From: a virus
Taxonomy: Duplodnaviria > Caudoviricetes
DNA length: 64,000 nucleotides
IMG/VR virus record: IMGVR_UViG_2843449061_000008
Coordinates: 24,102 to 88,101 of that record
Reading direction: 5' to 3' (one strand)
Position numbers and translations under genes: made by a program. Below the pieces are notes generated by a model. It searched no databases. It was not told the origin of the DNA and worked only from the letters and a program-made list of their open reading frames with translations. Positions 13,719 to 33,922 of this stretch are shown piece by piece; within the stretch, counting starts at the first letter, position 1, and the number at the start of each line of letters is the position of its first letter.

Positions 13719-14429
13719 ATGGCCCGTGAACGGCCCCAGACCAGCGCGAAGGAGTTCATCGACCGCTTCAACGCGCTGGGGATCGTCGGCGACGATGGCC
13801 AGCCGGTGACGGTGACGAAGGGCACCGTGTCCAAGCTGGTCAACGGGCAGGAGATGCCGCTGCTCGGCGTCACCTTCACCGTCACCATGCGCTGGCTGGC
13901 GGACAACACGGACCCGACGAAGCCGAAGTCGAAGCTGGGCACCGCGGCGCAGCGGTGGTTGAGCGGGCAGGGGCCAGTCCCAACCCCGCCGGTCCCGAAG
14001 ACTCTGGGAGAGGCGCCAACGCGTCAGGCCGAAAAGCAGCCGACCGTGGTGGTGCTGCCGATGGAGGAAGGCGCTTCGGCCGGCGGCCGGAACACGACGG
14101 TCTCCGAGTCCCGGCGTGAAAAGGAACGGCTCGACGTCGAGCTGAAGAAGCGCGAACTCGCCAAGCATGACCGCGAGCACATCCCGCGGGCCGAGGTGGA
14201 GGTGGCGGTGGATGCCGCAATTACCGAGTTCCGCGGCCAGTTCGAGGGGTTCGCCGGGCTGCTGGCCCGTCAGGTCGCCGGAAAGACCGACACCGAGGCC
14301 TACACCCTGATCCAGGCTGAGGTTCGCCGGCTACTGGAGCGGTTGAGCACGAACCTGCGGAAGGCCGCGGTCGGGCTCGTCGAGGAGATGCACGACGGTG
14401 GGGCCGTCGATGAACCGGAAGGCGAGTGA
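13719..14429 (+). CDS. terS: Terminase small subunit (helper, Nu1-like)
   Basis: SESRREKERLDVELKKRELAK...IPRAEV coiled coil typical of Nu1-type TerS; overlaps the terL start. Confidence 0.7.
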   Translation: MARERPQTSAKEFIDRFNALGIVGDDGQPVTVTKGTVSKLVNGQEMPLLGVTFTVTMRWLADNTDPTKPKSKLGTAAQRWLSGQGPVPTPPVPKTLGEAPTRQAEKQPTVVVLPMEEGASAGGRNTTVSESRREKERLDVELKKRELAKHDREHIPRAEVEVAVDAAITEFRGQFEGFAGLLARQVAGKTDTEAYTLIQAEVRRLLERLSTNLRKAAVGLVEEMHDGGAVDEPEGE

Positions 14430-16242
14430 CCTTCTCAACCGGATGGCGGCGGCTCTCGATCCGCCTCCGGAGATGGAACCCGACGAGTGGGCTGAGGAGA
14501 ACATCGTCCTCCCCAAGAAGGAGGGGATGCCCGGCCCTTATCGGATGGCCCACACGCCGCAGTTCATCCCGTTCGTGCGCGCGTTCTGGGACCCGCGGTG
14601 GCGACGCATTGTCTTCGTCTGCGGCGCCCAGGAGGGGAAGTCCAGAGCCGTCCAGGCGGTGATCGGCAAGAAGCTGGACCATGAGCCGGCGCCGGTCATC
14701 TATTACGGCCCGACCAAGACCTTCGTCGAGCGCACCATCGAGCCGCGCATCGTCGAGATGCTGAACTCCTCCAAGAGCCTGAAGGGCAAGACGCTCTGGG
14801 GGAAGAAGCAGAAGAAGACGCTGAAGATGGTCAGCGGTGCGCCGCTGATCCTGAGTTGGGCCAGTTCCGGTTCCGAGTTGGCCGGTCAGGAAGCCGCGTT
14901 GGTCTTCATCGACGAACGCGACCGCCTGGCCGACGACATCGACGGCGAGGGCGACCCGGTCGAGCAGGGCGAGGCGCGTATCGGCTCCTACGCCAACGGC
15001 AAGATCGGGATCATCTCGACGCCGAAGACCGGCGTCATCCGGAAGGAGCGGCATCCTGAAACGGGGCTGGAGCATTGGGCAATCGCCGACCTCAAGAAGG
15101 TCAACAGCCCAATCATCAAGCTCTGGTGGGAAGGTTCGCGCCACGAAATGGCGTGGCCCTGCCCAGAATGCGGCGACTACTTCATCCCGCACTCTGGACT
15201 GCTGGATTGGGACGGAAAGGCTGACGGCACGGCGACGCCCGGCCAGGCGGCCCGCACGGTCAAGATGATCTGCGGATGCTGCGGGGTCCCGATCGCCGAG
15301 GCGCACAAGGAGCGGATGTGCGATCGCATGAGGCCGGTCGCGCCGGGGCAGCGGGTGGAGCCGGATGGAACGGTGGTGGGGCCTGACCCCGACACCGATT
15401 GCTTCTCGATTTGGTCCAACGGGCTGATGTCCAAGTTTAAGTCCTGGGCCAAGCTGGTTCGGCGGTGGCTTTCCGCGCTGGCGTCCGGTGAGCCTGGGAA
15501 GGTGCAGGGCGTCGTCAACACGGGCTTCGGCGAACTGCACGCCGTCTCGGGCGACGCCCCGAAGCACTCCGCTGTCACGGACTGCAAGCTGCCCTACAAG
15601 CGGGGGCAGGTGCCCTACGGCGTCCAGCGGGTTGTTCTCACGGTCGACGTGCAGAAGCGCGGCGTCTATTGGGTGATGCGCGGGTGGGGCGCCCGGCGGG
15701 AATCCTGGCTGATCGACTACGGCTACCTGCCGGGCGAAACCGACGGCGCCGAGGTCTGGGACGAGCTGGAAGGCATCGTCCGGGCCGCTCTGCCCGGCAA
15801 CACAGGCGTCAACCTGCTGCTGATTGACTCCGGCTACCGGCCCGGCAAGCCGGCGGTGGTTCCGGAGAACGCCGTCTACGATTTCTGCCGGCGGTTCAGC
15901 CGCTCGTTCGCCCGGCCCATCAAGGGCGAGCGGTACCTGACCGGCAACAAGTGGTTCACCACCACGGACAACGACGTCGACAGCCGGGGCAGGGTGCGGA
16001 AATCCGCAGGCCTGATCCTGCACCGCCTCAACACGCACGAGTTCAAGAGCCGCGTGTTCGAGAAGATCACGCGGCGCAAGGAACTGGCTGGCGGCTGGCA
16101 TGTGCCGGAGGACGTCGACGACGCTTATGCCAAGCAGATCGTGTCGGAGACCTGCCGGTGGGTGGGTGGCAAGCCGATCTGGGACGAGTTGGGCGCCAAC
16201 CACTACCTCGACTGTGAGGTGGTCCAAGCGTCTCAGAGCTGA
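14410..16242 (+). pseudogene. terL: Terminase large subunit, lambda gpA family (helper), interrupted at codon 602 by the nested element; 610-aa truncated product
   Basis: Walker A GAQEGKS, Walker B VFIDERD, CPECG zinc motif and LTVDVQK nuclease motif. Ends abruptly at NHYLDCEVVQASQS*. The native tail lies at 33724-33922. Confidence 0.9.
16208..16214 (+). other. attL core TCGACTG
   Basis: Identical to 33717-33723; flanked symmetrically by the inverted repeat ACCAC...GTGGT. Confidence 0.85.
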
Positions 16243-16268
16243 AAATACCAATTTCAGAACAATGCATT

Positions 16269-16300
16269 AGGCCCTCTCGGACCCCTCCGGAGGGCCTTTG
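16269..16300 (+). terminator. Strong hairpin just inside attL
   Basis: AGGCCCTC(t)CGGA-cccc-TCCG-GAGGGCCT followed by TTG. Confidence 0.6.
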
Positions 16301-16383
16301 TGGTCGGTAAAATCCACGTAACCGTCCGCGCCGATGATGCCGAATGGAATCAATGACTTAGGGCGCGGGCGCGGCAACGCCGC

Positions 16384-16413
16384 GACACATGAGTGACACA
16401 AGGATGACGCAAG
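16384..16413 (+). repeat. Integrase arm-type repeats (left arm)
   Basis: GACACATG 16384, GACACAAG 16395 and GACGCAAG 16406 at 11-bp spacing. AGTGACACAAGG recurs at 33657-33668. Confidence 0.7.
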
Positions 16414-16432
16414 AGAAAGGAGCCATCCCACC

Positions 16433-16717
16433 ATGAATCGAGCCTCCAACACGCCGTCCGGCGGACAGATGCTTTACGGCTACAGAGCGATTGCCGGGCA
16501 TCTTGGACTAACCGAACGGCAGAGCAAGCACCTTGTCGAAACGGGCCGTCTGCGCTTCCCCGAAGACGGGGTGGAAGGGGACGTGTTCAAGGTCGGGCAT
16601 GTCGTCTGCGCCCTGGTCTCCAGCCTGGAACGATGGAAGGAGAGGGCGGCCCGCGGCGAGCTGAGCGCCGAGAAGGAACCCGGCCATGAGCACTCCCCTG
16701 AAGGCGAGGACGCCTAA
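16433..16717 (+). CDS. Excisionase/AlpA-like winged-HTH protein
   Basis: LYGYRAIAGHLGLTERQSKHLVETGRL...FKVG; AAAGGAG RBS; first gene after attL. Confidence 0.65.
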   Translation: MNRASNTPSGGQMLYGYRAIAGHLGLTERQSKHLVETGRLRFPEDGVEGDVFKVGHVVCALVSSLERWKERAARGELSAEKEPGHEHSPEGEDA

Positions 16718-16740
16718 CCCCTCCTCCCTGTAGGCCAGCC

Positions 16741-17226
16741 ATGACGCGCAAGCCCGCCAGCTTCAAGCACAAGGACGTGAACAGCCCGCCGGAACCGTTC
16801 GTGTGGATCTCGGCTGCGCTGCTTGTGTCCCCGGCATGGCGTGCGCGGTCGATCAACTGCGTGCGCTTGATCGAGTTCTTGCAGAAGGAGCACATGGCCC
16901 ACGGCGGGAAGGAGAACGGCAACCTCGCGGCACCCTATGACCAGCTTCAGGCATGGGGGATCGGGCGGCGCCTGATCCGTCCGGCCATCGAGGAGGCGGA
17001 GACCCTGGGGCTAATTGCGGTGCGCCGGGGCGGGAAGCGCAACGCGGTGGAGGATCATGTCAGCCGCTACCGGTTGACCTTCTACCCATCCCGCATCGTG
17101 CCCACGGACGGGCTCCCGCATTGGGAAGCGCCGACCGATGAATGGAAGCGCATCACGCCCGAGATGGCCGAAGAAGCCACCTGCCGGGCCTCGTCGAAAA
17201 TTAGGGTCTCAGGTTCACCTTCGTGA
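16741..17226 (+). CDS. Putative wHTH replication initiator of the satellite
   Basis: PFVWI...LL.SPAWR..S....RLIEFL..EH..HGG.ENG.L..PY...GI....I..AI.E...LGLI pattern; iterons begin inside its last codons. Confidence 0.6.
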   Translation: MTRKPASFKHKDVNSPPEPFVWISAALLVSPAWRARSINCVRLIEFLQKEHMAHGGKENGNLAAPYDQLQAWGIGRRLIRPAIEEAETLGLIAVRRGGKRNAVEDHVSRYRLTFYPSRIVPTDGLPHWEAPTDEWKRITPEMAEEATCRASSKIRVSGSPS

Positions 17227-17332
17227 ACCGTCTCAGTTCACCTTCGTGAACTCCCTCAGTTCACCTTCGTGAACTTTTGGCGGGCGCAAACCCAGCAAAT
17301 CCGCCACCTGGGTAAAGTTCACCTTCGTGCAC
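17213..17332. repeat. Satellite origin iterons GTTCAC-CTTC-GTGAAC
   Basis: Exact copies at 17213, 17236 and 17259 (23-bp period) and a one-mismatch copy at 17317. Confidence 0.85.
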
Positions 17333-17492
17333 TCCTTCTAATATCTTGGGTGTATCCCCCGAGAAATCGGCACCTGCCGATCACCATCACCACCACCCGC
17401 CGCCGACAGGCGGCGCACTCGGAACCGGCCCTGGTCCTGACGACCTCCGCCGCCGGCCCCGCCTTCATCCCTTCACACCGGAGACCTTCGCC

Positions 17493-17744
17493 ATGTCGAG
17501 TCCCGACACGGACAGCATCATCGCGACCATTCCGAAGAATGCGACGGAAGAGGTTCGCATCACCCTGACCAGCTACAACGGCCATCCGCTCGTTGATCTG
17601 CGGACCTTCGTTGAATACCGGACGACCGGTGAGTCCGGCCCGACCAAGAAGGGGCTGACGGTCGCTGTTGCGCTGCTCCCCGCCATCATCTCCGGCCTTC
17701 AGGATGCCGAGGCTGAAGCCCGCCGCCGGGGGCTGTTGCCATGA
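17493..17744 (+). CDS. PC4/p15-like single-stranded DNA-binding protein
   Basis: IATIPKNATEEVRITLTSYNGHPLVDLRTF...PTKKGLTV matches the PC4 fold; GGAGA RBS. Confidence 0.8.
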   Translation: MSSPDTDSIIATIPKNATEEVRITLTSYNGHPLVDLRTFVEYRTTGESGPTKKGLTVAVALLPAIISGLQDAEAEARRRGLLP

Positions 17745-18043
17745 CCCGCGATTCCATCATCGCCGCCCTGGTCAGTCGCAGCATGACGGCCAGCGCCGGC
17801 CCGGTGGAGAAGGCCGCCCGGTATCACGAAGTCGCCGCCGCGGTGAACGCCGCCGGACGCTACGCCGCACCGGCCCTGATGCTGGTGCAAGACGCTGAAG
17901 GCGACGTGCTGGCCGCTTTCGCCGCGCAGGTCGATGCGCTCCGCAGCACCGAGCCGAAGGCCAGCCCTGCACCCACTCCCGTCATCCGCCCGTCATCCTG
18001 GCGCCGGGAGATGGCGCGCGTCGTCAACCCGAGAGGATTGTGA
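17741..18043 (+). CDS. Hypothetical protein (100 aa)
   Basis: Overlaps the upstream stop by 4 bp. Confidence 0.55.
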   Translation: MTRDSIIAALVSRSMTASAGPVEKAARYHEVAAAVNAAGRYAAPALMLVQDAEGDVLAAFAAQVDALRSTEPKASPAPTPVIRPSSWRREMARVVNPRGL

Positions 18044-18044
18044 A

Positions 18045-18242
18045 ATGGACCGCATCGAAGCCCTGACTTTGCTCGCCGCCCCGCTGCTCCGCCAGCGCCG
18101 GCCCGTTCGGCTGTCTCGCATCAACGCCGGCTTGGTCGCCGCCGGTCATGCGGAGACCACGGTGGAGGAATTGGCAGCGCTGGCCCGGCCCGTGTTGGTC
18201 GCGGGCTGCACCGAGGAAGACGAGACTGAAGCGCTGGCGTGA
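18045..18242 (+). CDS. Small hypothetical protein (65 aa)
   Basis: ATG 1 bp after the upstream stop; GAGAGG RBS. Confidence 0.5.
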   Translation: MDRIEALTLLAAPLLRQRRPVRLSRINAGLVAAGHAETTVEELAALARPVLVAGCTEEDETEALA

Positions 18243-18346
18243 CCGTGGAGGGGCTTGTCGGGTTCGCGGGCTATCTCCGGACCCTCGCGCGGCAGACCGC
18301 ATCCACGGGCCTTCTGAGCTTTAGCTAAGGGCCATCGGGAAAGGCA

Positions 18347-18395
18347 CGGGTCCTTCCGGGGCGATTCTACCGGGGGTGGCCCCCGCCTCAGCACC
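18347..18395 (+). promoter_or_regulatory. Putative satellite cos site (cosQ-like GGGTCCT at 18348-18354)
   Basis: CGGGTCCTTCCGGGG followed by symmetric C-GGGGGTGGCCCC-G (18371-18384), about 90 bp upstream of terS. Confidence 0.65.
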
Positions 18396-18474
18396 TCTCC
18401 AGGCACGAACCGTCCTTGGGGGTTCCTGATCCGCCTCCCGTCAGCAAATTTTCCTACCGACAAGGATCTTCGGA

Positions 18475-18963
18475 ATGGCGACACAAACCGAAGTCGGGAA
18501 GCATCTCGACCTGTCCGACCGCTCCGTGCGGGAGTTGCTGGAGCGGGGAGTCCTGCCGAACGCTGCCCGCGGCGCCCTCGACCTCGACTGGTGCCGAACC
18601 TCCTACATCCGCCATCTGCGGGAAATGGCCGCGGGCCGGGCGACCGGGCCGGCCGGTGACGACCTGACCAGCGAACGCGCCCGACTGGCCCGCGAACAGG
18701 CGGACAACATCGCCCTGAAGAACGCGGCGCTGCGGAAGGAGCTGCTTCCACGCTCCGACATCACCCGCGCCGTGGTCGCGGCGTTCCAGATCGTGCGCGA
18801 CCGGCTGTCAGCCCTGCCGGCGCGGCTGGCTGGGCCGCTGGCCGCGACCACCGATCCGGCGGAAGTGCGCGGGCGGCTGAGCGACGCGGTGAACGGCGTG
18901 CTGGTGGAGCTGAGCGAAACGCGCGTTGTCGCCACCGTCGAGGAGCCGGCTGATGCGGCTTGA
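18475..18963 (+). CDS. terS: Terminase small subunit (satellite, Nu1-like)
   Basis: MATQTEVGKHLDLSDRSVRELLERGVL wHTH; DLTSERARLAREQADNIALKNA coiled coil. Confidence 0.88.
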   Translation: MATQTEVGKHLDLSDRSVRELLERGVLPNAARGALDLDWCRTSYIRHLREMAAGRATGPAGDDLTSERARLAREQADNIALKNAALRKELLPRSDITRAVVAAFQIVRDRLSALPARLAGPLAATTDPAEVRGRLSDAVNGVLVELSETRVVATVEEPADAA

Positions 18964-20848
18964 CCTTCCTGTGTCCGAGCTGGTGGCGGAAACGGCGACT
19001 GGGTGGTTCCCGGCGCTGCGGCCGGCGCCGCGGTTGTCGCTGGCCGAATGGGCGGAGCAACACGCGCGCCTCTATGACGGTGGCGCCTTCAGGCCCTACG
19101 CCTATCAACGGGCGATCCTCGACGCGATGACCGACCCGGCGGTGCGCCGAATCACGCTCATGAAGTCGGCGCGCGTCGGCTACACGCAAATGCTGTCGGC
19201 GGCGCTGGGCTACTTCGTTGCGCAGCGGCCTTCCAAGATCATGGTGGTTCAGCCCACCACCGAAGACGCCGAGGACTACAGCAAGGACACCATCGATCCC
19301 TTGGGCGAATGGCCGGTGCTGGCCGGGCTGCTGTCCGAGGTGAAGGCCAAGACCAAGGGCAACACCATCAAGCGCAAAGCCTTCCCCGGCGGTTCGCTGC
19401 GCATCACCGGGGCGAACAGCCCACGCGCCTTCCGCCGCATCGACCTCGACGTGCTGCTGTTCGACGAGGTGGATGGCTATCCGCCGATGGCCGGGAAGGA
19501 AGGTGACCAGATCGCGTTGGGCCTGAAGCGCCTGACGCAATCGCTGCATCCCTTGGCCGTGCTGGGGAGCACGCCGCTTCTCGACGGGGAAAGCAAGATC
19601 GCGGACGCCTTCGCGGCCGGGACCATGGAGCGTTACCATTTGCCGTGTCCCTGCTGCGGGGAGCTGCAAGCGCTGGTGTGGGGCGACGGGACCGGGCCGG
19701 GCATGCGCTGGACGGACAACGACCCGGACACCGTGCATTACGTCTGCGTCAACGGGTGCCCCTTCGGCGAGGAACACAAGCTCGACCTGCTGGAGCGCGG
19801 GCGTTGGATCGGGGAGACGCCGCGCAAGGATCATCGCAGCTTTCACATCTGGAGCGCCTATAGCCCGCTGCCCGGCGCGGCGTGGCCCGAGCTGGTCAAA
19901 GAGTTCCTGGCCGCCAAGCGCGATCGGGAAAAGCTGCAAGTCTGGACCAACACCGTGTTGGGTGAGTGCTGGGTGGACCGTGGCGAGGCCCCGGAGTGGC
20001 GGCGGTTGTACGACCGGCGCGAGACCTGGGAGCCGGGCACCGTTCCGGCCGGCGGGCTTTTCCTGACGGTCGGCGCCGACGTGCAGCGCGACCGGATCGA
20101 GGTGAGCGTGTGGGCATGGGGCCGGGGCAAGGAGTCCTGGCTGATCGAGCATCGGGTGTTGCCGGGCGATCCGTTCCAGGCGGCTGTCTGGCGCGACCTG
20201 ACTTCGCTGCTGGCGGAGACCTGGCGCCACGAAAGCGGCACCGACCTGTCGGTGATGATGACGGCCATTGACGCGGGCGACGGCGTGACGATGGAGGCGG
20301 TGAAGGCGTGGGTGCGCAACGCCGGCCCGCGCGTCATGGCGATCAAGGGCAGTTCGCTGGCGCTGGCGCCGATCCTGGGCCAGCCGTCCGCTGCGGACGT
20401 GAACTATGGCGGCCGGAAGATCGCGGGCGGGGTGAAGCTCTGGCCGGTGGGCACCAGCGCGGCGAAGTCCGAGTTCTACGGCTTCCTGCGCCTCGACCGC
20501 CCGACCGAGGAAAGCGGCGAGCCGTTCCCGGCCGGCTTCGTCCACATCCCGCAGCATGTCGGCGAAGAGACGGTGAAACAGCTCGTCGCGGAACATCGGG
20601 TGACCCGCGGCGGCAAGGGCCGGCGCAGCGTCACCAGTTGGGAAAAGCTGCGGGATCGGAACGAGGCCCTGGATTGCCGAAACTACGCCCGCGCGGCGGC
20701 GGCCCGGCAAGGGCTGGAGCGCATGAACGACCCGGCATGGTCGGAGCTGGAGCGGGCCTTGGGTGTGCCCCGTGATCCGGCTGTGCCGGTGGCCACAGCG
20801 GCGCCGACGGCGCGGCGGGTGTCCCGCTCGTCCTGGCTGTCGGAGTAG
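18953..20848 (+). CDS. terL: Terminase large subunit, lambda gpA family (satellite, intact, 631 aa)
   Basis: KSARVGY (lambda gpA Walker A), LLFDEVDGY, CPCCG, GADVQRDR and RNEALDCRNYARAA. Confidence 0.93.
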   Translation: MRLDLPVSELVAETATGWFPALRPAPRLSLAEWAEQHARLYDGGAFRPYAYQRAILDAMTDPAVRRITLMKSARVGYTQMLSAALGYFVAQRPSKIMVVQPTTEDAEDYSKDTIDPLGEWPVLAGLLSEVKAKTKGNTIKRKAFPGGSLRITGANSPRAFRRIDLDVLLFDEVDGYPPMAGKEGDQIALGLKRLTQSLHPLAVLGSTPLLDGESKIADAFAAGTMERYHLPCPCCGELQALVWGDGTGPGMRWTDNDPDTVHYVCVNGCPFGEEHKLDLLERGRWIGETPRKDHRSFHIWSAYSPLPGAAWPELVKEFLAAKRDREKLQVWTNTVLGECWVDRGEAPEWRRLYDRRETWEPGTVPAGGLFLTVGADVQRDRIEVSVWAWGRGKESWLIEHRVLPGDPFQAAVWRDLTSLLAETWRHESGTDLSVMMTAIDAGDGVTMEAVKAWVRNAGPRVMAIKGSSLALAPILGQPSAADVNYGGRKIAGGVKLWPVGTSAAKSEFYGFLRLDRPTEESGEPFPAGFVHIPQHVGEETVKQLVAEHRVTRGGKGRRSVTSWEKLRDRNEALDCRNYARAAAARQGLERMNDPAWSELERALGVPRDPAVPVATAAPTARRVSRSSWLSE

Positions 20849-20937
20849 ACGGCCGGCCCCGGCGCCATCTCCGAAGTTGAACGAATCGGCCAACAGTCCT
20901 ATGGTTAGGCAATTATACCCTATTGAGGATAATTGTC

Positions 20938-22383
20938 ATGCTGTCGGGACTGCGGCGGACCGTTGGGAACCTGTTGATCCGCAGCCTCGACGCGGCCGGA
21001 GCCGGCAAGCGCTGGGGAGCCAAGTCCCGCATGGTGAACCTGAACGCCGAGATGCTGGCCGGTGCGTCCATCGCGGCGCAGCGCGCGGCCTACTTCGCCC
21101 GCAACAACCCGAACGTCGCCGCCGCGGTGAATGCCCTGGTGAGCAATGCCGTGGGGACCGGGATCAAGCCGCGGTCCAAGCACCCCGATCCGGCGGTGCG
21201 CGATGCGCTGCACAGCTTGTGGGAGCGGTGGGAGCGGGTGGCCGATGCGTCGGGCCGGGCCGGCGGCTTCTACGCTCAACAGGCCCTGGCCGTGCGCGCA
21301 ATGATCGAGGGTGGGGAATCCTTCGCCCGTCTCCGCGCCCGGCTGCCGGAAGACGGCTTGCCGGTGCCGCTTCAGGTGGAGCTTATCAGCCGGGACCAAG
21401 TTCCCTCGACGCAGTGGCAGGAAATCCGACCCGGCAACCCGGTTCGGGCCGGGATCGAGTTCGACACGCTGGGCCGGCGGGTGGCGTTCTGGGTTCTGCC
21501 CTTCAATCCCAATGACCCCACCATGCCGGTGCTGGCGCCGACCTGGGAGCCGAAGCGGGTTCCGGCGGAGGACATGTTGCACCTGTTCCGCGAGCTGGTG
21601 GAGAACCAGCTTCGGGGACTGTCCTGGCTGGCGCCGATCCTGCTGCGCGTGAAGGAGCTGGACCAGTACGAAGACGCCGCCCTGGTCCGCGCCAAGGTCG
21701 CGGCGATGCTGGCCGGCTTCATCATGAACAAGGACGACGCCAACCCGGCTTGGCAGCCGCCGGCCAACGCCGAGACGCCGACGCTGGAACCGGGTGTGCT
21801 GGTGCCGCTGAACCCCGGCGAGTCCGTCGAGTTCACCAACCCGCCCGACGACAAGAACTATGACCCGTTCACGAAGAACCACATGCGGGCCATCGCGGTG
21901 GGGATCGGGGCGACGTACTTCCAAGTCTCGGGCGACCTCAAAGACGCCAACTACTCCAGCCTGCGCGGCGGGCTGGTGGAGTTCCGCCGCAGTGTCGAGC
22001 AGCTCCAGCACCTCACGATCATCCCGCAACTCTGCGACCCGGTATGGCGCCGCTTCGTGACGCTGGCCGTGCTGTCCGGCGCCATCGACGCGCCGGACTT
22101 CTTCCGCGACCCCGAACCCTACCTGTCCGCTGAATGGCTGCCGCCGGCCTTCGATTGGGTGGACCCGCTGAAGGACGTGCGGGCCGAAGTCGAGGCCATC
22201 GAGGCGAAGCTGAAAAGCCGGGCGCAGTCCGTCGCCGAACGCGGCTACGACGTCGAAACCCTGGACTCGCAGATCGCCGCGGACGTGCAGCGGGAACAGC
22301 GGCTTGGCCTGCCCACCACGGCGACGAAGGCCGCTGCGCCGACCCAGCCGGACGAACCCACGGAGCCCCCCGCCAATGGCTGA
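20938..22383 (+). CDS. Portal protein, lambda family (satellite)
   Basis: ARNNP..AAAV..LVSN.VGTGI, RAGIEFD..GRRVAFW, QLRGLSWLAP, YFQVSGDL.DANYSSLR and W.PPAFDWVDPLKD. Confidence 0.92.
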   Translation: MLSGLRRTVGNLLIRSLDAAGAGKRWGAKSRMVNLNAEMLAGASIAAQRAAYFARNNPNVAAAVNALVSNAVGTGIKPRSKHPDPAVRDALHSLWERWERVADASGRAGGFYAQQALAVRAMIEGGESFARLRARLPEDGLPVPLQVELISRDQVPSTQWQEIRPGNPVRAGIEFDTLGRRVAFWVLPFNPNDPTMPVLAPTWEPKRVPAEDMLHLFRELVENQLRGLSWLAPILLRVKELDQYEDAALVRAKVAAMLAGFIMNKDDANPAWQPPANAETPTLEPGVLVPLNPGESVEFTNPPDDKNYDPFTKNHMRAIAVGIGATYFQVSGDLKDANYSSLRGGLVEFRRSVEQLQHLTIIPQLCDPVWRRFVTLAVLSGAIDAPDFFRDPEPYLSAEWLPPAFDWVDPLKDVRAEVEAIEAKLKSRAQSVAERGYDVETLDSQIAADVQREQRLGLPTTATKAAAPTQPDEPTEPPANG

Positions 22384-24238: not shown

Positions 24239-24240
24239 CC

Positions 24241-24456: not shown

Positions 24457-24458
24457 CC

Positions 24459-24803: not shown

Positions 24804-24828
24804 GGGTCGGCAGGGGCTGGCCGAAGGG

Positions 24829-25531: not shown

Positions 25532-25565
25532 AGCCGGCCGGCGCGTCTTGCCCGGCCGGCTTTTC
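25532..25565 (+). terminator. Intrinsic terminator/attenuator
   Basis: AGCCGGCCGG / CCGGCCGGCT 10-bp stem plus TTT, directly before the next RBS. Confidence 0.6.
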
Positions 25566-25579
25566 TATGCGAGGTGACC

Positions 25580-25897: not shown

Positions 25898-26032
25898 GCT
25901 GGGTGGAGAAGAGAAAAACCTATTCGATTGGAGCGGTTTGCGGTTCTATCTACAGAATTAATGTCGCTGAAAAGACGCATTTATGGTACACATAACCCCT
26001 CATGCTAGAACAAGAAACAGAGATGCACGAAA

Positions 26033-26542
26033 ATGTCTATTTACCCCATCGGTGGAGCCTCTAGCTTTGATGACATGCCCAAGGGAACGATGTTTTACGG
26101 GGAGGTGGGTGACAAGATCGTTCTTCTTTTCCGTTGTGCAAAGGTAATAAGTCAATCTACAGAAGATATCGAATACGCTGCGGTCTTCGACAGGCAAGTG
26201 ATACCGCATATCGGTAACCCTATTGTTATAGAAGGAGCTTCGTATTTTACTAACAAGTTGTTTGAGGTGAGGGGTTCTTATGTGAAGCCCGATCTTTCCT
26301 CTATGGATCTGTCCTACAATAACCCGAAGTTAGGGGATATAGTTTACTTTGAGTCCGCGGCTTACTTTGTCTTGGCGAGTGAGCGGCATGGGCGCATGTA
26401 TGTCAACATTGATACGGGATATGCGCTTGAGAACGTGAACCACGACCTGCCGCGCGCGATTTTCAGAAGATGGAGCATTGTGCAGCGGGTGTTCGACCGT
26501 GAGGAGGTGCTTTTCACTTACGAGCCTGCCCCGGCTCGGTGA
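26033..26542 (+). CDS. Hypothetical cargo protein, low GC (169 aa)
   Basis: AT-richer ORF with protein-like composition; no family recognised. Confidence 0.65.
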   Translation: MSIYPIGGASSFDDMPKGTMFYGEVGDKIVLLFRCAKVISQSTEDIEYAAVFDRQVIPHIGNPIVIEGASYFTNKLFEVRGSYVKPDLSSMDLSYNNPKLGDIVYFESAAYFVLASERHGRMYVNIDTGYALENVNHDLPRAIFRRWSIVQRVFDREEVLFTYEPAPAR

Positions 26543-26581
26543 GTGAAGCGTTCGGCCTGCCGCGGACCCGGCCGGGGCGGG

Positions 26582-26856
26582 CCTGTAACACACCTTGACC
26601 GCCCTGTGTTGCAGCCTGTAACACAGGGTGTGTTGCAGGCTGTGTTGCAGGTGATCCGCCATGGCGACCCCGACCATTTCCGTTCGCGTATCTCCAGAAC
26701 ATCAAGGGCTTGTCCGAGACGTGGCGGCCCGGCTGAAGGCCGATCCCGGCTTTGCTGACGTGCTGCGCGCCGCGCTGGGGGAGGGTGTGACACAGCCTGT
26801 CATACAGCCTGTGTTACGGCTTGGATCGCGGGGTGTGACACAGGCTGCAACACAGG
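26582..26856. repeat. Two blocks of five 11-12 bp near-palindromes (CTGT-N3-ACAG-like)
   Basis: Block 1 at 26582-26651 upstream of the 26661 gene; block 2 at 26785-26856 inside it. Examples: CTGTAACACAG, CTGTGTTGCAG, CTGTCATACAG, GTGTGACACAG. Confidence 0.8.
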
Positions 26857-27227
26857 TGGACGGCCAGACCGCTCACCAGCGCCAGCCCGCGCCCGAAGGC
26901 CAGCCCGATCCTGCGGCCGGCGCCCTGGCCGATGTCCTGCGCCGGGTGGAGGTGCTGGAGGCGCATGTTGCCGACCTCCGGGGCAAGGCTGGCCGGCAAG
27001 CCAAGGTAGCCAGCCAACAGCAACGGCTGATCGCCGCCGCGGGGCTGGAAGGCGTCATGACCCGCCTGCAATACGCCGCGCACATCGGCGTGTCCAACCC
27101 GACCCTGACGCGCTGGGTGAAGCGGGGAATGCCGGTGCAGGACGATGGGCTGCTCGACGTCGAGGCGGTGGAGAGCTGGCGGAAGGCGAACGAGTCCCGG
27201 CTCCTGGCGGAGAGGGTGAAGGGGTAG
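26661..27227 (+). CDS. DNA-binding protein: RHH-like N-terminus, coiled coil and Nu1/MerR-like wHTH C-terminus
   Basis: TISVRVSPEHQGLVRDVAARL; MTRLQYAAHIGVSNPTLTRWVKRGMPV...LDVEAVESWR. Confidence 0.6.
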   Translation: MATPTISVRVSPEHQGLVRDVAARLKADPGFADVLRAALGEGVTQPVIQPVLRLGSRGVTQAATQVDGQTAHQRQPAPEGQPDPAAGALADVLRRVEVLEAHVADLRGKAGRQAKVASQQQRLIAAAGLEGVMTRLQYAAHIGVSNPTLTRWVKRGMPVQDDGLLDVEAVESWRKANESRLLAERVKG

Positions 27228-27435
27228 GGGGGGGCGGGCCGGCGACACCGGCCCGAGCGTCTACGAGGCCGGCGTCTACCGAAACAGTTTATTAGCGATA
27301 ATTTCGAATACGTGATGCGTGTGTTTAACTGATTCTGGTATAGCAGTCGGATGCCACGTGCGATGATAAGTCGTAGTGGAGTTGTTTAAGAGGCACCAGC
27401 TGGTGTTGAATCAGTATTAAAGGAATGGGGTCGAA

Positions 27436-28173
27436 ATGGAAATAACTCGAATCGAAAAATTTTCGGAATCGCAAGATTTCGGCCGCGAGACTCCAAAATT
27501 CGAACTTGATTATTTTGGTAAAGATCTAATGGACCATAATGGTATAAAGTGGATTTATTTGATATGCCCTCATTGCGGGACGCGTGTTAAATTTTCACCC
27601 ATACATGTTGTCGTGGTTAAGGGGGAAGAGCTTGGCATGCTGACTCGTGATTACCATTATCTTTGCAAATGCGAGTATTGCAACGATGTTGTTTATGCCA
27701 AATTTTGGGAAGTCGACTTTGATCCTGATTGGCATTTCGCGTATGAGATGCATTTCCCGGCGGCTATATTCAATGGAAGCGTTGATCTGCCAGAGCAAGT
27801 CAATGTATCGTTTTCAGAGGCCACGAAGTGTTTAAACGCGGATGCCAGCTTAGCTACTCTTGTTATGTGCCGTCGCACTGTTGAAGCTATAGTAAGAGAC
27901 AAGGGGGGTTCGAGTGGTGGTGGCCTATATTCTGAAATAGATAAGTTAATCAAGGATGGCACCCTCCCTGATTCCATGGGTCGCCTTGCGAATGTTATTA
28001 GGATGGTAGGCAATAAGGGTGCGCATGCATCTGAACTTGCCACGGATAGCAAGCAGGCTAGGGATGCGTATGAACTTACGAAGAAAATGATTGATGTAAT
28101 TTATCTGGTTCCAAGGCAGGTGCATGAAATAAGGAGCAAGCTTGAACAAGAAAAATCCGTTAAAACGGAGTGA
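27436..28173 (+). CDS. DUF4145 (HEPN-like) protein with an N-terminal zinc finger
   Basis: CPHCG...CEYC; ATLVMCRRTVE; IRMVGNKGAH (R-x-x-GN-x-x-AH); low GC. Confidence 0.8.
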   Translation: MEITRIEKFSESQDFGRETPKFELDYFGKDLMDHNGIKWIYLICPHCGTRVKFSPIHVVVVKGEELGMLTRDYHYLCKCEYCNDVVYAKFWEVDFDPDWHFAYEMHFPAAIFNGSVDLPEQVNVSFSEATKCLNADASLATLVMCRRTVEAIVRDKGGSSGGGLYSEIDKLIKDGTLPDSMGRLANVIRMVGNKGAHASELATDSKQARDAYELTKKMIDVIYLVPRQVHEIRSKLEQEKSVKTE

Positions 28174-28225
28174 GGAATAATATAGGATATGCCGACTGAA
28201 TAAAGACGTAAGTAATTAGTTTTTC

Positions 28226-29257
28226 ATGATACGTCAATCAATCCAAAAATGGAGTGCTAGGCAAATGAAAGCAACAACAAGTGAGCTTCGCGTCAAAAAC
28301 CACAACGAGTGGCCCGCTGTCGAATTATTCCCCTGTGAGATTGAGCTTCTACAGAGGTTGGCGCAAAAGAATATGCAGCAAATCTTTATCACGGCTAGGT
28401 TCATGCCTGATGAAAAGGATGAACCATTTAACGCCGCAGTAGGACACATATTGGACTGTCTGGATTCCCTACCAAAACGTCCTGACGCAGCTTTTGATAG
28501 CCTATACAAGGTTATTGATAGCAACCTTGCGGAATTTTCTGAGCCCAATTTGTCCCCCATGCATAGCACTGTAAAAGCCTTTTTTTTGGCTCACCCATCC
28601 GAATGGAGCAAAATTACCGAGATCTTGTCTGCTAATTTGCCTCAGCAAACCGCAGACTACGCGGCATCGCGTATTCTCGATTGCCACGTTGATGGCGGGC
28701 TTCCCCATGCCGATGAAATAAAGAAAAGAGCCAGCAGAAGCCTAGGGAAGCAGCGCTATAAAGATTTCTGTGAAAAATATCTTGTAGAAAACCCGCAGAT
28801 GCAAGGTAGCTACAGCATGCCATACGAAAACAGGAGGAATGCTGGCCGCTTGATGAAGTTACTATTTAGATTAAAGAAATCCGGTGATTGCTCTGGCGAT
28901 GTCAGCAAAATTGAGGCAAGTGACCAGATGGGGGTGCAATACAATAGTCTGGATTTGGGGGAAGACTGCAATAGGCTTTCTTCTGATGAAAAGTTAAAGG
29001 TGATAATGGAGGCTTGTCTTTATACGTACAGAAATGAGCGCTTCCACGGAGATGCATTTTCGCCATTCAGAAGCGGAAAAGCAAAACTTAAGACGTATGC
29101 GCATGCCTATTTTATGTTGAATGCGGCTTACGTTATTGTGCTTGGCATGCTTCATTTGCAAGGGAAAGGGGGTATTTCTATTTCGCATATTGTTGAGATA
29201 ACAATTCGGTCTATGCAGCAATTCGCGGCATTCTTTGAAGATGTTGTTAACGAATAG
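28226..29257 (+). CDS. Putative HEPN-domain protein (343 aa)
   Basis: LYTYRNERFHG fits the HEPN R-x4-H motif; helical character; low GC. Confidence 0.6.
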   Translation: MIRQSIQKWSARQMKATTSELRVKNHNEWPAVELFPCEIELLQRLAQKNMQQIFITARFMPDEKDEPFNAAVGHILDCLDSLPKRPDAAFDSLYKVIDSNLAEFSEPNLSPMHSTVKAFFLAHPSEWSKITEILSANLPQQTADYAASRILDCHVDGGLPHADEIKKRASRSLGKQRYKDFCEKYLVENPQMQGSYSMPYENRRNAGRLMKLLFRLKKSGDCSGDVSKIEASDQMGVQYNSLDLGEDCNRLSSDEKLKVIMEACLYTYRNERFHGDAFSPFRSGKAKLKTYAHAYFMLNAAYVIVLGMLHLQGKGGISISHIVEITIRSMQQFAAFFEDVVNE

Positions 29258-29465
29258 AATGTCGAGGACGGTACTAGACGGCCCGTTTGTAGCTCGGTAA
29301 CTGCGGCGGCGTACTGCTGCTCCAACTCAGCCACATACGTGATGGCTTGCCTAGCCATACCCTCCAAGGCGCCGAGCCCAAGCCGCGCTGCGCGGCCTTC
29401 TGAGGGGGGCTTACGGAGTAGGGCAGGGCGGCTCATCTTGGCCGGACTGCTGGCACCCGAAAAGC

Positions 29466-29500
29466 AGAAGCCCGCCGGGTCTCCCGCGGCGGGCTTTCTT
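29466..29500. terminator. Bidirectional terminator between convergent cargo genes
   Basis: AAGCCCGCCG / CGGCGGGCTT stem with A- and T-rich flanks. Confidence 0.7.
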
Positions 29501-29625
29501 AGGGCGCTGGGTGGCGATCCAGCTGACGGTGATTGGGTTCTGTGGCGTATGGGGCAACCTGGGTTGCCCCCTCTGCCTTGGGCGCGTTGGGCGGGATTCT
29601 GAAGGTTAGTCATAGTGCGAGAAAC

Positions 29626-30114
29626 TTAGGTTTCGGGACTCTTCTTCGATTTGACGAATTTGTATCCTTCTCGGAAGCCATGAAGCTGCCCGCAAAGGAA
29701 ATTAATGGAAGCCCTCAATTGTATTGCGGTATCGTTCGCACTTTTCCTGGCTTCTGAAGTTCCGCTGACGCCAACATCATCTAAAAATTTATTTATATAT
29801 TCATCTATTTTAGGATGCTCAATATTATGAGCTATCTTGTTTCTAAGAGTGTTTAGCTTCTCGGCGCTGTCTAAAAGCGCATCAACATGGCGCACAGGGA
29901 GTAGTGCTCTTACTAGCCGTAATCTTTGCGCAAATCGAAATTGATCAACATCAATAGCGGTGGGGTTTGCTAAAAGATCCACCATAAAACCATTAACTAT
30001 TTCTTCCATCAGGAGATGCCCCTTTAGCACTACTAACGTGACATCGTTTGATGTTGGAAACAGCCTTTCAAATCGCTCATCAAATTCCTCAAAACTTGTT
30101 TTTTCGAATGACAT
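29626..30114 (-). CDS. Putative stand-alone HEPN protein (MtlR-like fold)
   Basis: VLKGHLL.E...F..R..L..AL...LNTLRNKIAH (R-x4-H); AAGGAGG RBS; low GC. Confidence 0.65.
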   Translation of the reverse strand: MSFEKTSFEEFDERFERLFPTSNDVTLVVLKGHLLMEEIVNGFMVDLLANPTAIDVDQFRFAQRLRLVRALLPVRHVDALLDSAEKLNTLRNKIAHNIEHPKIDEYINKFLDDVGVSGTSEARKSANDTAIQLRASINFLCGQLHGFREGYKFVKSKKSPET

Positions 30115-30159
30115 GCAACCTCCTTATCAATGGGTGTACTTATTACACTTAGCGCGCTA

Positions 30160-30262
30160 AGTTTTTTCAGGTGTCGATCGGGCTTCTGCAGATAGCCCCG
30201 CTCGACCAACCAAGCCTTCAACACTCGCTCGACCAGCGACGACACAGACCGGTCATCGTCCT
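30160..30262 (-). pseudogene. Orphan C-terminal half of a ribbon-helix-helix (CopG-like) gene
   Basis: A frame overlapping the repressor stop reads KDDDRSVSSLVERVLKAWLVERGYLQK and has no proper start. Confidence 0.4.
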
Positions 30263-30504
30263 TCGTCGGCTTTCCTCAACCGTACCCCCGCACCCCCGCC
30301 ATTCTCCGGGATGAACTCGACGCCAGCCGCTTCCATGGCCGTGCGGATAGCGATGAGGGTGCGCGGCTGAGGTGCTGTATCCCCTTTCTCAAACCGGACA
30401 AGGGATCGCTTCGCAACCTCTCCGTTGGTTGCTTCGGCAAGCTCATCTTGACTCCAGTTCAAGAGTCCCCTGGCCGCACGGCATTGGGCTGGTGTTATCG
30501 ACAT
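30253..30504 (-). CDS. XRE-family HTH repressor (satellite master regulator)
   Basis: ITPAQCRAARGLLNWSQDELA...FEKG...GVEFIPENGGGAGVRLRK; divergent from the antirepressor-like gene. Confidence 0.88.
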   Translation of the reverse strand: MSITPAQCRAARGLLNWSQDELAEATNGEVAKRSLVRFEKGDTAPQPRTLIAIRTAMEAAGVEFIPENGGGAGVRLRKADEGR

Positions 30505-30566
30505 GGCACTTTTAGTGACATTCATTGTTGACCGATGCCATCACGATATGGCACTTTTAGTGACAT
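30503..30566. promoter_or_regulatory. Twin 19-bp operators ATGGCAC-TTTTA-GTGACAT
   Basis: Identical copies at 30503-30521 and 30548-30566, each a one-mismatch palindrome, between divergent genes. Confidence 0.8.
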
Positions 30567-30575
30567 AGCAAGCGC

Positions 30576-30618
30576 GGCCGAACCGGGTGTTGGGAGCATC
30601 CGGCCCGGCCTGACCACA
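30576..30618 (+). promoter_or_regulatory. Structured leader hairpin ahead of the antirepressor-like gene
   Basis: GGCCG-aa-CCGGGTGTT-ggg-AGCATCCGG-c-CCGGCC nested stem followed by CTGACCAC. Confidence 0.4.
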
Positions 30619-30643
30619 ATCGAGCTGCATGGAGCTACGGATC

Positions 30644-31861
30644 ATGGCTGATTCCGAGAATACCACACCCTTGCCCGGCGCCGGCCGCCGGAAAACGGCT
30701 GGCGCCCTGGTGCCGACCAAGCCCGCCGACCTGCCGCCGCTGACCCCCGACCAACTGAACGACCAAGACGGCGAGCCGCGGGTGCTCGACCTCGCTCTTG
30801 CTGAGCGTCTGGGCTTCTCCGACGTTCACAAGGTCCGCGCCCTGATCGAACGGAACCGCTCCGAGCTGGAGAGCTACGGAGTTATTTCCGCCGCCGTGGC
30901 GGAAAACACCGATCCCAAGGGCCGAGGCCGCCCCGGCAAAGCCTACTACCTGAACGAAGGCCAAGCCCTGGTCATCTGCGCCCTGTCCCGCACCCCGCAA
31001 GCCGCCCTGGTGCGCCGGCAGATCATCGAGGTGTTCTTGGCTTACCGGCGGGGCGTGCTGCCCGTGGCCGAGGAACAGCAACAGACCATCGCCCACCTCG
31101 CCGCGGAGCTGGCCGACCTGCGCCAGCGCGTCGCCCTGATCGGCGCGGCCCCGCATATCCGGGCGATCTTCAAGGGCGGCTACCTGCCGGGGTCCACCGC
31201 TTTGACGGTGCAGGACATCAGCATGGAATGGGACGAGCCGCGCATCTCCGACCAGCGGCTTGCGGTCCAGCTCGGGCTGCCGGACATGCACACCGTGCGC
31301 AAGCTGATCCGTTCGCACCGGAACCTGTTGGCCGGCCTGGGCCGGATCGTGAGCGTCCCGCAGGTGAAGGAGACGGACGGGAAGGGGCGCCCGCTCGGCG
31401 CCTTCTGGCTAACCGAGTTGCAGGCCCTGGCCGTCTGCGGGCTGGTGAGCGGCAATGTCGCGTCGGCGACCCGAACCCGGCTGATCAAGGTGTTCGCCGA
31501 GTTCCGCCGCGGGCAGGAGGAGCTTGCGGCAGCCGGCGGCATTCGCGAGGTGCGGAACAACGCCGAGATGGTGGTGATGCTGGATGAGCGGGTGGCGGCC
31601 CTGGAGGCGAACGCCCGCACCGAGTCCCGCACGGAGGTGCGGCGCCAGCGCCGGCGGGTTGCCGACGAGGCGCTTACAGAGGATGGGGACTTGCTCTACG
31701 GCGGCCCGCGCATCGCGGCCTATCTGGGCGTTCGGCTGAAGTCCGTCGAACACATGATTCGTTCCGACAAGCTGCCTCACTTCCGCATGTCCGGGCGGGT
31801 GTGTTCCCGCAAGACCCTCCTGGGCGCGTGGCTGGACGGTAAGGAGGTGGTCAATGCTTGA
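30644..31861 (+). CDS. Antirepressor-like protein: two tandem Rha/KilA-like domains plus a C-terminal excisionase-type HTH
   Basis: Repeat EPR..D..LA..LG......VR.LI......L...G...GRP...YL.E.QAL..C...R..II.VF...RRG occurs twice; C-terminal LLYGGPRIAAYLGV. Confidence 0.7.
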   Translation: MADSENTTPLPGAGRRKTAGALVPTKPADLPPLTPDQLNDQDGEPRVLDLALAERLGFSDVHKVRALIERNRSELESYGVISAAVAENTDPKGRGRPGKAYYLNEGQALVICALSRTPQAALVRRQIIEVFLAYRRGVLPVAEEQQQTIAHLAAELADLRQRVALIGAAPHIRAIFKGGYLPGSTALTVQDISMEWDEPRISDQRLAVQLGLPDMHTVRKLIRSHRNLLAGLGRIVSVPQVKETDGKGRPLGAFWLTELQALAVCGLVSGNVASATRTRLIKVFAEFRRGQEELAAAGGIREVRNNAEMVVMLDERVAALEANARTESRTEVRRQRRRVADEALTEDGDLLYGGPRIAAYLGVRLKSVEHMIRSDKLPHFRMSGRVCSRKTLLGAWLDGKEVVNA

Positions 31862-32381
31862 GCCATTATCCCGCCGCTCCATCCTGGCCGGCGCGTCCGC
31901 GGTGGCCCTGGGCGGCCCGGCGCCGGCGGATGCTGTGGATCCTTTCGGCGCCGCTATCGCCTCGCTCGAAGGGCATGCGCCCGCCGCTGAGTCCGACCCC
32001 GCCATTGCGGTCTGCGCGCGGTGGGTGAAGGCGTGGCGGGATGTGTCGGAGGCCGCCGACCGGTCAGGGGATCGGATGGGGCAGCTCCGTGCCGCGGGCT
32101 TCACCGATGAGGCGATAAGCGAGGACCCCGAATACAGGGTCTTGGATGCCTCCTTCAGCCGCCTGGAGCGGGAAGAGGACGATCTGCGCAACGAAGTCCC
32201 TACGACCCCTGCCACGACCCTCCATGGCGTCATTGCGAAGCTGAGCGCTTGGCGGATGGAGGAGGAGCACTACGGGACGGGGGGTGATGAGAGGTTCGTG
32301 CACTCCGCTCTCTCCGACCTCCGCCGGCTGGTGCATGGCGAGGCCGGCCCGGCACTGCTGCCTGATCGCCTGGGCGCCTGA
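31854..32381 (+). CDS. Hypothetical protein with a twin-arginine-like N-terminus
   Basis: LSRRSILAGASAVAL; P.TL.GVIAKL motif seen in small phage proteins. Confidence 0.6.
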   Translation: MLEPLSRRSILAGASAVALGGPAPADAVDPFGAAIASLEGHAPAAESDPAIAVCARWVKAWRDVSEAADRSGDRMGQLRAAGFTDEAISEDPEYRVLDASFSRLEREEDDLRNEVPTTPATTLHGVIAKLSAWRMEEEHYGTGGDERFVHSALSDLRRLVHGEAGPALLPDRLGA

Positions 32382-32498
32382 CCGGCCCGGCCGCACTGAC
32401 GGGGTGCGCGATCTGCGCACCCACCCAACCACACCTGAACCGCGGCGACGGCGCTGGGCATCCCCGGCGCCGCGCCCGTTCCAATCTGGAGAACCATC

Positions 32499-33695
32499 AT
32501 GGCTTCTGTGAACAAGCGCCGTTGGTCCCACAACGGCGTCGAAAAAGAGGCGTGGATTGTCCGCTACGTTGATCACTCCGGAAAGCGGAGGGGGAAGACG
32601 TTCGATAAGAAAAAGGACGCCGACGCTTATAAAAGAAAAGTGGAAGCGGACATGGATAACGGGCTGCATGTTCCGGATGGCGATACCGACACGATCAAGG
32701 GCATGGGGGAGAAGCTATTAAGGCATCTTGAGCTTCGTCAGTTGAACGGCGGACTGTCGAGGCAGAGGCTTTACATTTACAGACTCGCTTTTGACCGGGG
32801 TGTTGTGCCGTACATTGGGAACGTCAAGCTTTCAGAATTGAATTTCTCGCACCTTGACGCATGGTGGTTGGAGCTGTCGAAGACGAGTATTTCGGAAAGG
32901 ACGCGCCGCGATTACCTGAAGTGTCTGAAAGTCCTTGAGAGCTTCGCCATAAAGCGCGGAGCGTCGAAAAAGGCCGTCGTTCCCGGCTTCATCAAGGAGC
33001 TTGGCACACTGCCGGAAAAGCCGATCCGGGTGCTGAACTCCGAACAGGTCGGCCGGCTGCTTGAGGTGGTCGAGGAGCGCCCCAAGGGCAAGCAGCGGCG
33101 GACACACGCGATCCTGCGGTGCGCCGTCCATCTCGCCGCTTTCTGCGGCCTTCGGTTCGGGGAGATCATGGGGCTGACCGTGGTCAACCTGGACCTCGAC
33201 GCGCAGGTGATCCAGGTCCGGCACAGCCTGAACGTCTTCGGAGAGCTGAAGGGACCGAAGACCGCGGCCGGCCGGCGCGACGTGCCCATCCCGTCGCACG
33301 TCGCCGAGATGCTTCGTGAATGGCTGCGGACCTCCTTCATCCCGAACGAGCGGGGGTTGGTGTTCCGCACGGACGGTGGCGGTGACATGGCCCTGACCAA
33401 CTTTCACAAGTTCTGCTGGAAGCCTCTGCTGCGCCGGGCCGGGCTTTGGGACGAGGGCGGGGACCAGTACCATTTTCACGCCCTTCGGCACTTCGCGGCG
33501 AGCTTCATGATTCAGAACGGGCTGCCGGTGACCGACGTGGCGTCGATGCTCGGGCACCGCAAGTTCGACACCACCTTGCAGGTCTACGCGCACCCCATCG
33601 TCGGGGGGAGCCGCCGGCTTGAAACCGCCGAGACCATGGCCCGGCTGCTGTTGGTCAGTGACACAAGGGAGACACAAGAGACCCTAACACCTTGA
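32499..33695 (+). CDS. int: Tyrosine recombinase / integrase (satellite)
   Basis: N-terminal arm-binding domain (W.VRY.D.SGKRR.KTF); catalytic GLRFGEI, HALRHFAAS and LGHRKFDTTLQVYAH. Confidence 0.95.
   Translation: MASVNKRRWSHNGVEKEAWIVRYVDHSGKRRGKTFDKKKDADAYKRKVEADMDNGLHVPDGDTDTIKGMGEKLLRHLELRQLNGGLSRQRLYIYRLAFDRGVVPYIGNVKLSELNFSHLDAWWLELSKTSISERTRRDYLKCLKVLESFAIKRGASKKAVVPGFIKELGTLPEKPIRVLNSEQVGRLLEVVEERPKGKQRRTHAILRCAVHLAAFCGLRFGEIMGLTVVNLDLDAQVIQVRHSLNVFGELKGPKTAAGRRDVPIPSHVAEMLREWLRTSFIPNERGLVFRTDGGGDMALTNFHKFCWKPLLRRAGLWDEGGDQYHFHALRHFAASFMIQNGLPVTDVASMLGHRKFDTTLQVYAHPIVGGSRRLETAETMARLLLVSDTRETQETLTP
33657..33678 (+). repeat. Integrase arm-type repeats (right arm)
   Basis: GACACAAG at 33660 and 33671, 11-bp spacing, same orientation as the left arm. 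Confidence 0.7.
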
Positions 33696-33716
33696 TTTGA
33701 AAGGGCGGAAATTACT

Positions 33717-33723
33717 TCGACTG
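33717..33723 (+). other. attR core TCGACTG
   Basis: Identical to 16208-16214; 21 bp after the integrase stop. Confidence 0.85.
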
Positions 33724-33922
33724 CGAGATGATGCAGGAGGCGGCGGCGGAGATCCTGAAGTTCCGCCTACTGCCGCTGCTGCCGCCCGCGCCTGAAGGGG
33801 ATGACGATCAAGCCGACCAGGCGCAGGTGCCGGTCCTCAGCGAGCAAGTTAAGGCGCCGCAAAACTCGTCCGCATCAAGCGCTCCGCAGATTGCTCGAAT
33901 GGGCAGAATTCCCGGCCTTTAA
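33724..33922 (+). pseudogene. terL: Orphaned 3' end of helper terL (65 residues after the DC motif)
   Basis: Reads (C)EMMQEAAAEILKFRLL...IPGL*; joins in frame to 14410-16214 and ends 11 bp before the gpW-like gene. Confidence 0.85.

Follow-up and report, generated by a model that had tools for sequence, protein, structure and literature searches.

The concept of regulated gene integrity, or active lysogeny, is cited in PMC10111431; skin in sigK and SpyCI in mutL are examples. Two groups of satellites provide further points of comparison for the element considered here, an insertion in the terL gene of a prophage in IMG/VR virus record IMGVR_UViG_2843449061_000008. The analyzed stretch of 64,000 nucleotides (positions 24,102 to 88,101 of that record) is referred to as the window, and all coordinates are given in it. 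The helper-embedded phage-inducible chromosomal islands (HE-PICIs; founder Eco567.11capE) of Tommasini, Mageeney and Williams (2023) are enterobacterial and, in the accessible part of that paper, occupy sites that include terL genes of the Terminase_1 type (PMC10111431); the terL-sited example in Escherichia coli is locus L178 of the comparison set. The capsid-forming PICIs (cfPICIs; EcCIEDL933) are represented by the SatelliteFinder model of de Sousa et al. 2023 (PMC10085698). A first-pass annotation of the window had presented terL as an undescribed satellite target. Because HE-PICIs in terL were published in 2023, the idea of embedding in terL is not new; gpA-type terL targets were not found in the searchable text of PMC10111431. 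The lifestyle has already been published, while the integrase family, the reversed layout, the host range, and the gpA-nuclease site appear to be new.

The element is probably a capsid-forming, tail-less satellite residing in the terL of its helper, where it would delay and reduce helper packaging until excision restores the gene. The evidence consists of the delimitation of the insertion, the damage to the helper terminase, and the recurrence of the arrangement in a family of related integrases.

Boundaries of the element

The satellite comprises 17,509 bp bounded by two copies of TCGACTG, the attL core at 16208–16214 and the attR core at 33717–33723, within the gpA-type terL of the prophage; features lie on the plus strand unless noted. 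The host is very probably Azospirillum: proteins from Azospirillum argentinense, A. himalayense, and strain TSH58 fall into one 90%-identity cluster with the helper TerL. The left core covers the codon of an invariant nuclease aspartate, D601 (lambda gpA D589-C590), and is centred in an imperfect dyad. Removal of 16215–33723 in silico replaces the 610-aa frame of the integrated state with an open frame of 2004 nt encoding 667 aa, as the first-pass annotation had read from the duplicated core. Its placement of the integrase end 21 bp before the right core is also correct (32499–33695, PF00589). A third copy of TCGACTG lies at 18584, other 6- to 8-mers are also common to both ends, and the 7-mer on its own is within chance.

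Despite a 7-mer at chance level, the boundary is fixed because intact homologues are collinear with the joined protein, an empty allele exists, the orphan C-terminal peptide matches intact TerL proteins, and arm repeats accompany the cores. The reconstituted 667-aa TerL, for which comparison with uninterrupted homologues had been proposed, aligns with L011 across residues 2–667 and with L010 at 98% identity over residues 1–627. The peptide encoded by 33724–33922 aligns with intact TerL C-termini, as anticipated, at 58–60% identity (E 1e-14). The empty allele L184 of A. himalayense, 96% identical in DNA, reads as the attB junction originally written, apart from a single synonymous change 13 nt beyond the core. 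The element-side flank of the attR core is the same in L180 and L181.

In the reconstructed attP, arm repeats are co-oriented on both sides of the core with an 11-bp period throughout. Two lie at -62/-51, within the 3' end of int (33658–33678), and three at +171/+182/+193 form the inner attL arm (16382–16413), with similar spacing family-wide. Integration is site-specific and due to the adjacent tyrosine integrase, the att junctions of the first-pass annotation stand unchanged, and the element is well delimited and probably still mobile. A hairpin at 16269–16297, 55–83 nt inside attL (z -3.2), is a possible terminator; the terminator scan did not call it, and a near copy with a T-run is present inside the attL of the relative L064/L012.

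Consequences for the helper terminase

The 5' part of the helper terL (14410–16242; PF05876, PF20454) ends in eight element-derived codons, and its orphan 3' end (33724–33922) retains 65 codons, which specify the remainder of the last helix, then a structured segment and a tail that is disordered. The nuclease profile on the integrated-state protein ends at 280/294. D601 is invariant in 75 homologues and equivalent to lambda gpA D589, and the matching aspartate is followed by 37–100 residues in 108 of 108 scorable homologues; the loss of a C-terminal tail, claimed at first pass, is upheld, and lambda requires this tail to dock to the prohead (PMC4856287). The description of the eight replacement residues as unrelated is not upheld, as their E603 and Q606 also occur in the true tail.

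In an AlphaFold model of the 610-aa TerL, both domains fold and the element-coded residues complete the last nuclease helix, with residues 598–609 modelled at a pLDDT of about 90. For an intact homologue, the model places the last helix at 598–612 and extends order to about residue 629, with 611–629 confidently modelled; the remainder is disordered. A sequence search returned no solved gpA-type TerL, and a fold search returned only other TerL families.

The lambda terminase of Aam42, five C-terminal residues short, nicks DNA and cannot dock to the prohead (PMC4856287). By analogy, the 610-aa product is likely a terminase able to cut and unable to dock. Two further blocks are plausible: the remainder of the late operon is displaced behind the hairpin, and the composite of 88.1 kb is 25% oversize relative to the 70.6 kb without the element. 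Both the excess length and the distance placed between the downstream late genes and their promoter probably matter just as much. Intact wild-type terminase rescues in trans in lambda (PMC4856287), so the earlier expectation that the satellite is guaranteed to exit before helper virions form is not supported. The gating would probably be a delay instead, because one excised copy could serve unexcised ones.

The integrase family and its targets

Relatives of the integrase at 32–97% identity are present in Azospirillum, Methylobacterium, Sphingomonas, Xanthobacter, Brucella/Ochrobactrum, Devosia, and viral contigs, and none was detected in cultured phages, where the best match is 28% identical. 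No description of this alphaproteobacterial integrase family was found in literature outside subscription journals. The 85 family loci were sorted by hand and include some near-duplicates. At 66 of these, a start-less 3' piece of a late gene lies just behind int: 16 gpA-type TerL, 12 other TerL, 12 portal, 6 protease, 16 capsid or head, 2 TerS, 1 HNH, and 1 tail. The TerS and HNH pieces and a few short capsid ends were classified by visual inspection, and most other classes are backed by Pfam or PHROG, which confirm 11 gpA nucleases, 8 other TerL nucleases, 6 portals, 5 Clp proteases, capsids, and one tail gene. None of 61 distant integrases is followed by a late-gene piece, a weak control in that the reference set favours alphaproteobacterial and lambda genes.

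Both ends could be mapped in 38 relatives, L024 and L029 with uncertainty, yielding cores of 6–29 bp, sizes of 7.3–21.3 kb, and about 30 sites, distributed over terL, terS, portal, protease, capsid, and tail genes. Automatic att mapping erred where the late genes of an element mimic the 5' piece (the window, L066, L018, L070, and others), and such cases were corrected or dropped. An excisionase-like gene lies about 180–350 nt inside attL in nearly all mapped relatives, and the arm spacing is kept. Matches of the mapped elements to lambda or helper tail genes are limited to short stretches, and three match a tape-measure-like gene.

Comparison across these loci indicates that conserved codons in phage late genes are the targets through which the family finds its helpers. 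On the same comparison, terL is one target among many because portal, protease, capsid, terS, and tail genes are split as readily, contrary to the terL-specific switch first proposed. The close integrase homologues expected beside split gpA-type terL genes do exist: in two other genomes, whose helpers have contractile-tail genes and a TerL tail unlike the present one, an element with 97%-identical integrase DNA occupies the same terL codon, and a 61% relative is inserted at the same site.

Individual loci display additional arrangements. A near-identical helper in Azospirillum TSH58 (L064, L182) has an intact terL with a variant core and a 14.9-kb family element in its portal gene. The GAC-GCC variant of the intact helpers L010, L012, and L182 was considered as an escape mutation and set aside because the 61% relative uses that core. 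In genome G025, family elements of 15.2 and 15.9 kb (L096 and L066) occupy one helper capsid gene 219 nt apart, and removal of both yields an open frame. The left end of L065 lies in a gpA-type terL and its right end in a ClpP-capsid gene, reflecting a tandem, nested, or deleted pair. IS66-like transposase sequence directly follows the integrase at the expected attR in L013 (11249–12844) and L059, and such copies may be locked in. The family integrases of L032, L035, L040, L194, and L207 are followed by chromosomal-looking sequence and are possible off-target insertions. Some members (L076; L086, L034, L097) harbor a tape-measure-like gene without a full tail module, and L076 also harbors a DUF2793 gene.

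Gene content of the satellite

The first gene inside attL throughout the family, here at 16433–16717, encodes a putative excisionase, a helix-turn-helix (HTH) protein resembling HTH_17 that was detected with a family hidden Markov model and has a relative matching PF12728. It is followed by a winged-helix protein (16741–17226), possibly a fragment of a replication initiator, for which HTH_36 is the lead in 17–22% of members (Atlas), and by a PC4-like single-strand DNA-binding protein (17346–17744, PF02229). A cos-like stretch at 18347–18390 is 73% like the helper sequence at 12531–12575; the match is weak alone (E 1.2) and its position before the satellite terS fits.

The head module encodes TerS (18475–18963, phrog_57), a gpA-type TerL (18926–20848), a lambda-type portal (20923–22383, PF05136), a protease-capsid fusion (22304–24238, PF25209, with a weak S78 peptidase match in relatives), a gpW-type head-tail adaptor (24241–24456, phrog_2545), and a head decoration protein (24453–24803, phrog_122). 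Tail, lysis, primase, and head-closure genes were not found in the element by Pfam, PHROG, or tblastn, with a few ORFs left unassigned, in agreement with the initial view of a tail-less satellite. The satellite and helper TerL proteins are 25% identical, the portals 37%, and the TerS proteins have no BLAST match. The satellite head proteins have counterparts at 77–97% identity in other small elements, some of which use other integrases, so the element is best described as a mosaic, in which a capsid-forming module is combined with an integration module that targets late genes.

The C-terminus of the protein encoded by 26661–27227 contains a TerS/MerR-like HTH common to L064 and L172, a possible packaging or regulatory factor. 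Low-GC cargo at 27436–30114 (no strand assigned) consists of a DUF4145 protein (27436–28173) matching the defence system PD-T7-4 (PADLOC) and two ORFs without a family match, and differs from the cargo in the relatives L013 and L181. A divergent XRE-like repressor on the minus strand (30253–30525) has weak NCBIfam matches below the cut-off, and a Rha/antirepressor is fused to a second excisionase-like HTH (30629–31861). The integrase of 398 aa points outward at attR and keeps all six catalytic residues (R219, K254, H327, R330, H353, and Y363).

Proposed mechanism and alternative explanations

In the proposed mechanism, the satellite has used its own tyrosine integrase to enter the 7-bp core over the aspartate codon of helper terL, as the observed junctions show. 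While integrated, it would be carried along passively when the induced prophage is excised and copied, and the truncated helper TerL would fold in both domains and lack the portal-docking tail, a functional loss suggested by lambda. The rest of the late operon lies 17.5 kb away behind the hairpin, in a composite 25% too long. The integrase and the excisionase-like protein would then excise a circle and restore terL, the excisionase-like gene being the first in the presumed path of helper late transcription. The satellite DNA would be packed by its own terminase into its own small heads, with head closure, tails, and lysis taken from the helper, and helper packaging would be delayed and reduced, with no absolute lock. 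Excision of this copy, tail borrowing, loss of helper packaging, and timing by helper transcription are steps that we infer. In five metagenomic contigs of relatives (L076, L193, L200, L202/L203, and L205), int is joined directly to the excisionase-like gene, the form expected after excision, although short contigs among them may instead derive from a tandem array.

An assembly chimera, or a chance 7-bp repeat, would account for the two cores, and 7-mers do recur randomly at these ends; because an empty allele exists, arm repeats are present, independent genomes have an identical attR, and the anatomy is kept across the family, this explanation is effectively refuted and its probability negligible. 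The element could also be real and frozen, in a permanently disabled prophage that persists as a defence island with PD-T7-4 and other low-GC cargo. Defence cargo is indeed present, the relative L181 has a 214-aa integrase and capsid remnants, L013 has IS66 at attR, and no excised form of this copy was seen. Permanent immobility is nevertheless unlikely, given that ORFs, arms, and cores are all intact here, the helper late genes look whole, and near-identical integrases sit in unlike helpers, which implies recent movement.

Two other explanations concern the terminase. Integration could be nearly neutral if the short replacement finishes the helix and the 610-aa TerL packages DNA, leaving polarity and genome size as the only block. 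The replacement codons resemble the true ones, the helix they complete is confidently modelled, and the relative L022 (11197–11245) supplies an equal-length tail for the last nine terL codons and may not disrupt its target. Against these observations stand the lack of any natural homologue with a tail below 37 aa, the confident modelling of residues 611–629 in the intact protein, the Aam42 defect in lambda (PMC4856287), and the mid-domain cuts made by most family members; near neutrality is thus quite unlikely. It is very improbable that the satellite terminase substitutes for the broken helper TerL, such that helper packaging needs no excision. Both TerLs belong to the gpA family, a cos-like stretch is common to both, and such backup copies are raised in the accessible part of the HE-PICI paper (PMC10111431), but the two packaging modules have diverged as described above and terminase-portal pairing is specific in lambda (PMC4856287).

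A delaying satellite remains the favoured explanation, and the order of events in the E. coli HE-PICI, as given in the accessible text, counts in its favour (PMC10111431). Several observations weigh against it. The truncated TerL keeps D413, D473, E580, D601, E603, and its last helix, and the sequence of the missing tail is poorly conserved, for which reason its docking role rests on lambda. The hairpin has a weak U-tract, promoter scans were empty, and no primase was found in the element. The exact attP junction had no match in metagenome or viral contigs, nor did the exact attR pattern, and in the accessible part of the E. coli study virions were never recovered (PMC10111431).

A broader interpretation is more tentative. 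The loci may represent an undescribed, class-wide alphaproteobacterial satellite family whose late-gene targeting evolved independently of HE-PICIs, in which a single integrase lineage passes from one helper to another, across tail types, by recognising a conserved catalytic codon. With the excisionase gene lying in the path of late transcription under the reversed layout, excision would be timed by the helper late programme.

The helper prophage

The virus record of 88.1 kb reads as a complete prophage that starts at an integrase gene and has a holin-like end, and its late genes appear whole. The helper terminase small subunit (13719–14429, phrog_57) precedes terL, and gpW, portal, and protease (33934–37304) resume directly behind the orphan terL piece. 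The tape measure protein of 3242 aa contains a transglycosylase domain (43755–53483). An iteron-like array of short direct and inverted repeats at 11652–11932 lies far from the replication gene at 1582–2574. A frame with matches to large phage DNA methyltransferase/DarB-like families is apparently a fragment and lies beside a long unassigned frame (5866–7926, minus strand, and 9267–11894). An ARAGORN call of tRNA-Arg at 10306–10396 (genome 34407–34497) falls within long open frames and may be spurious.

Significance

Satellites appear to have adopted helper late genes as integration sites convergently, so that the habit is no peculiarity of a single enterobacterial integrase clade; it is common among Alphaproteobacteria that live with plants or in soil. 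A prophage judged defective because its terminase, portal, or capsid gene is split may in fact be an intact helper-satellite pair. The change of target site about 30 times with arm spacing kept provides a good set for studying how tyrosine integrases gain specificity. Mitomycin C reportedly induces Azospirillum prophages (PMC3899980), so particle formation, the step missing from the 2023 study, could be attempted here, with a satellite carrying head genes of its own.

Comparison with known satellites

As far as the accessible part of the HE-PICI survey describes them, the two systems share a tyrosine integrase that places a satellite (10–20 kb in HE-PICIs) inside, and co-oriented with, a helper late gene. 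In both, excision restores the interrupted gene, here judging from the reconstructed ORF and the empty allele, and no full replacement sequence is supplied. Excision after helper induction is a further HE-PICI trait, and in the present family excised junctions were seen for relatives. One integrase clade uses many late-gene sites including terL, an arm motif is doubled at fixed spacing, and two elements may occur in one helper. The integrases themselves differ, with 23% identity over 181 aa and 26 bits against the 400-bit cut-off of the survey, and fall on separate tree branches; an approximately unbiased test against a single clade with the 11capE integrases gives p = 0.023, with long branches.

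The layout is also reversed. The HE-PICI int groups with that of P4 and points inward from attL before alpA, in the order int-alpA, Bro, primase, and late zone, whereas here int is last and outward-pointing, an HTH_17-like gene is first, and Rha is next to int. No AlpA or primase match like those of 11capE was found in the element (Pfam, PHROG, and tblastn), and the doubled HE-PICI motif TGTATTGC, at -81/+132 of attP in the accessible description, is absent here with one mismatch allowed. The hosts are Alphaproteobacteria, and the arm motif and its spacing differ.

Like cfPICIs, the element encodes its own TerS, TerL, portal, protease, capsid, and head-tail adaptor, with no tail or holin genes found. 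It differs in having a lambda gpA/gpW-type module with a protease-capsid fusion and in sitting in a prophage gene; the cfPICI primase-replicase, HNH nuclease, and head-tail connector were not found (Pfam, PHROG, and tblastn). Small capsids with helper tails, a cfPICI trait, are predicted for the present element as well. Excision restores an interrupted gene in active lysogeny as well; unlike skin and SpyCI, the gene interrupted here belongs to a phage, and the timing would serve the element.

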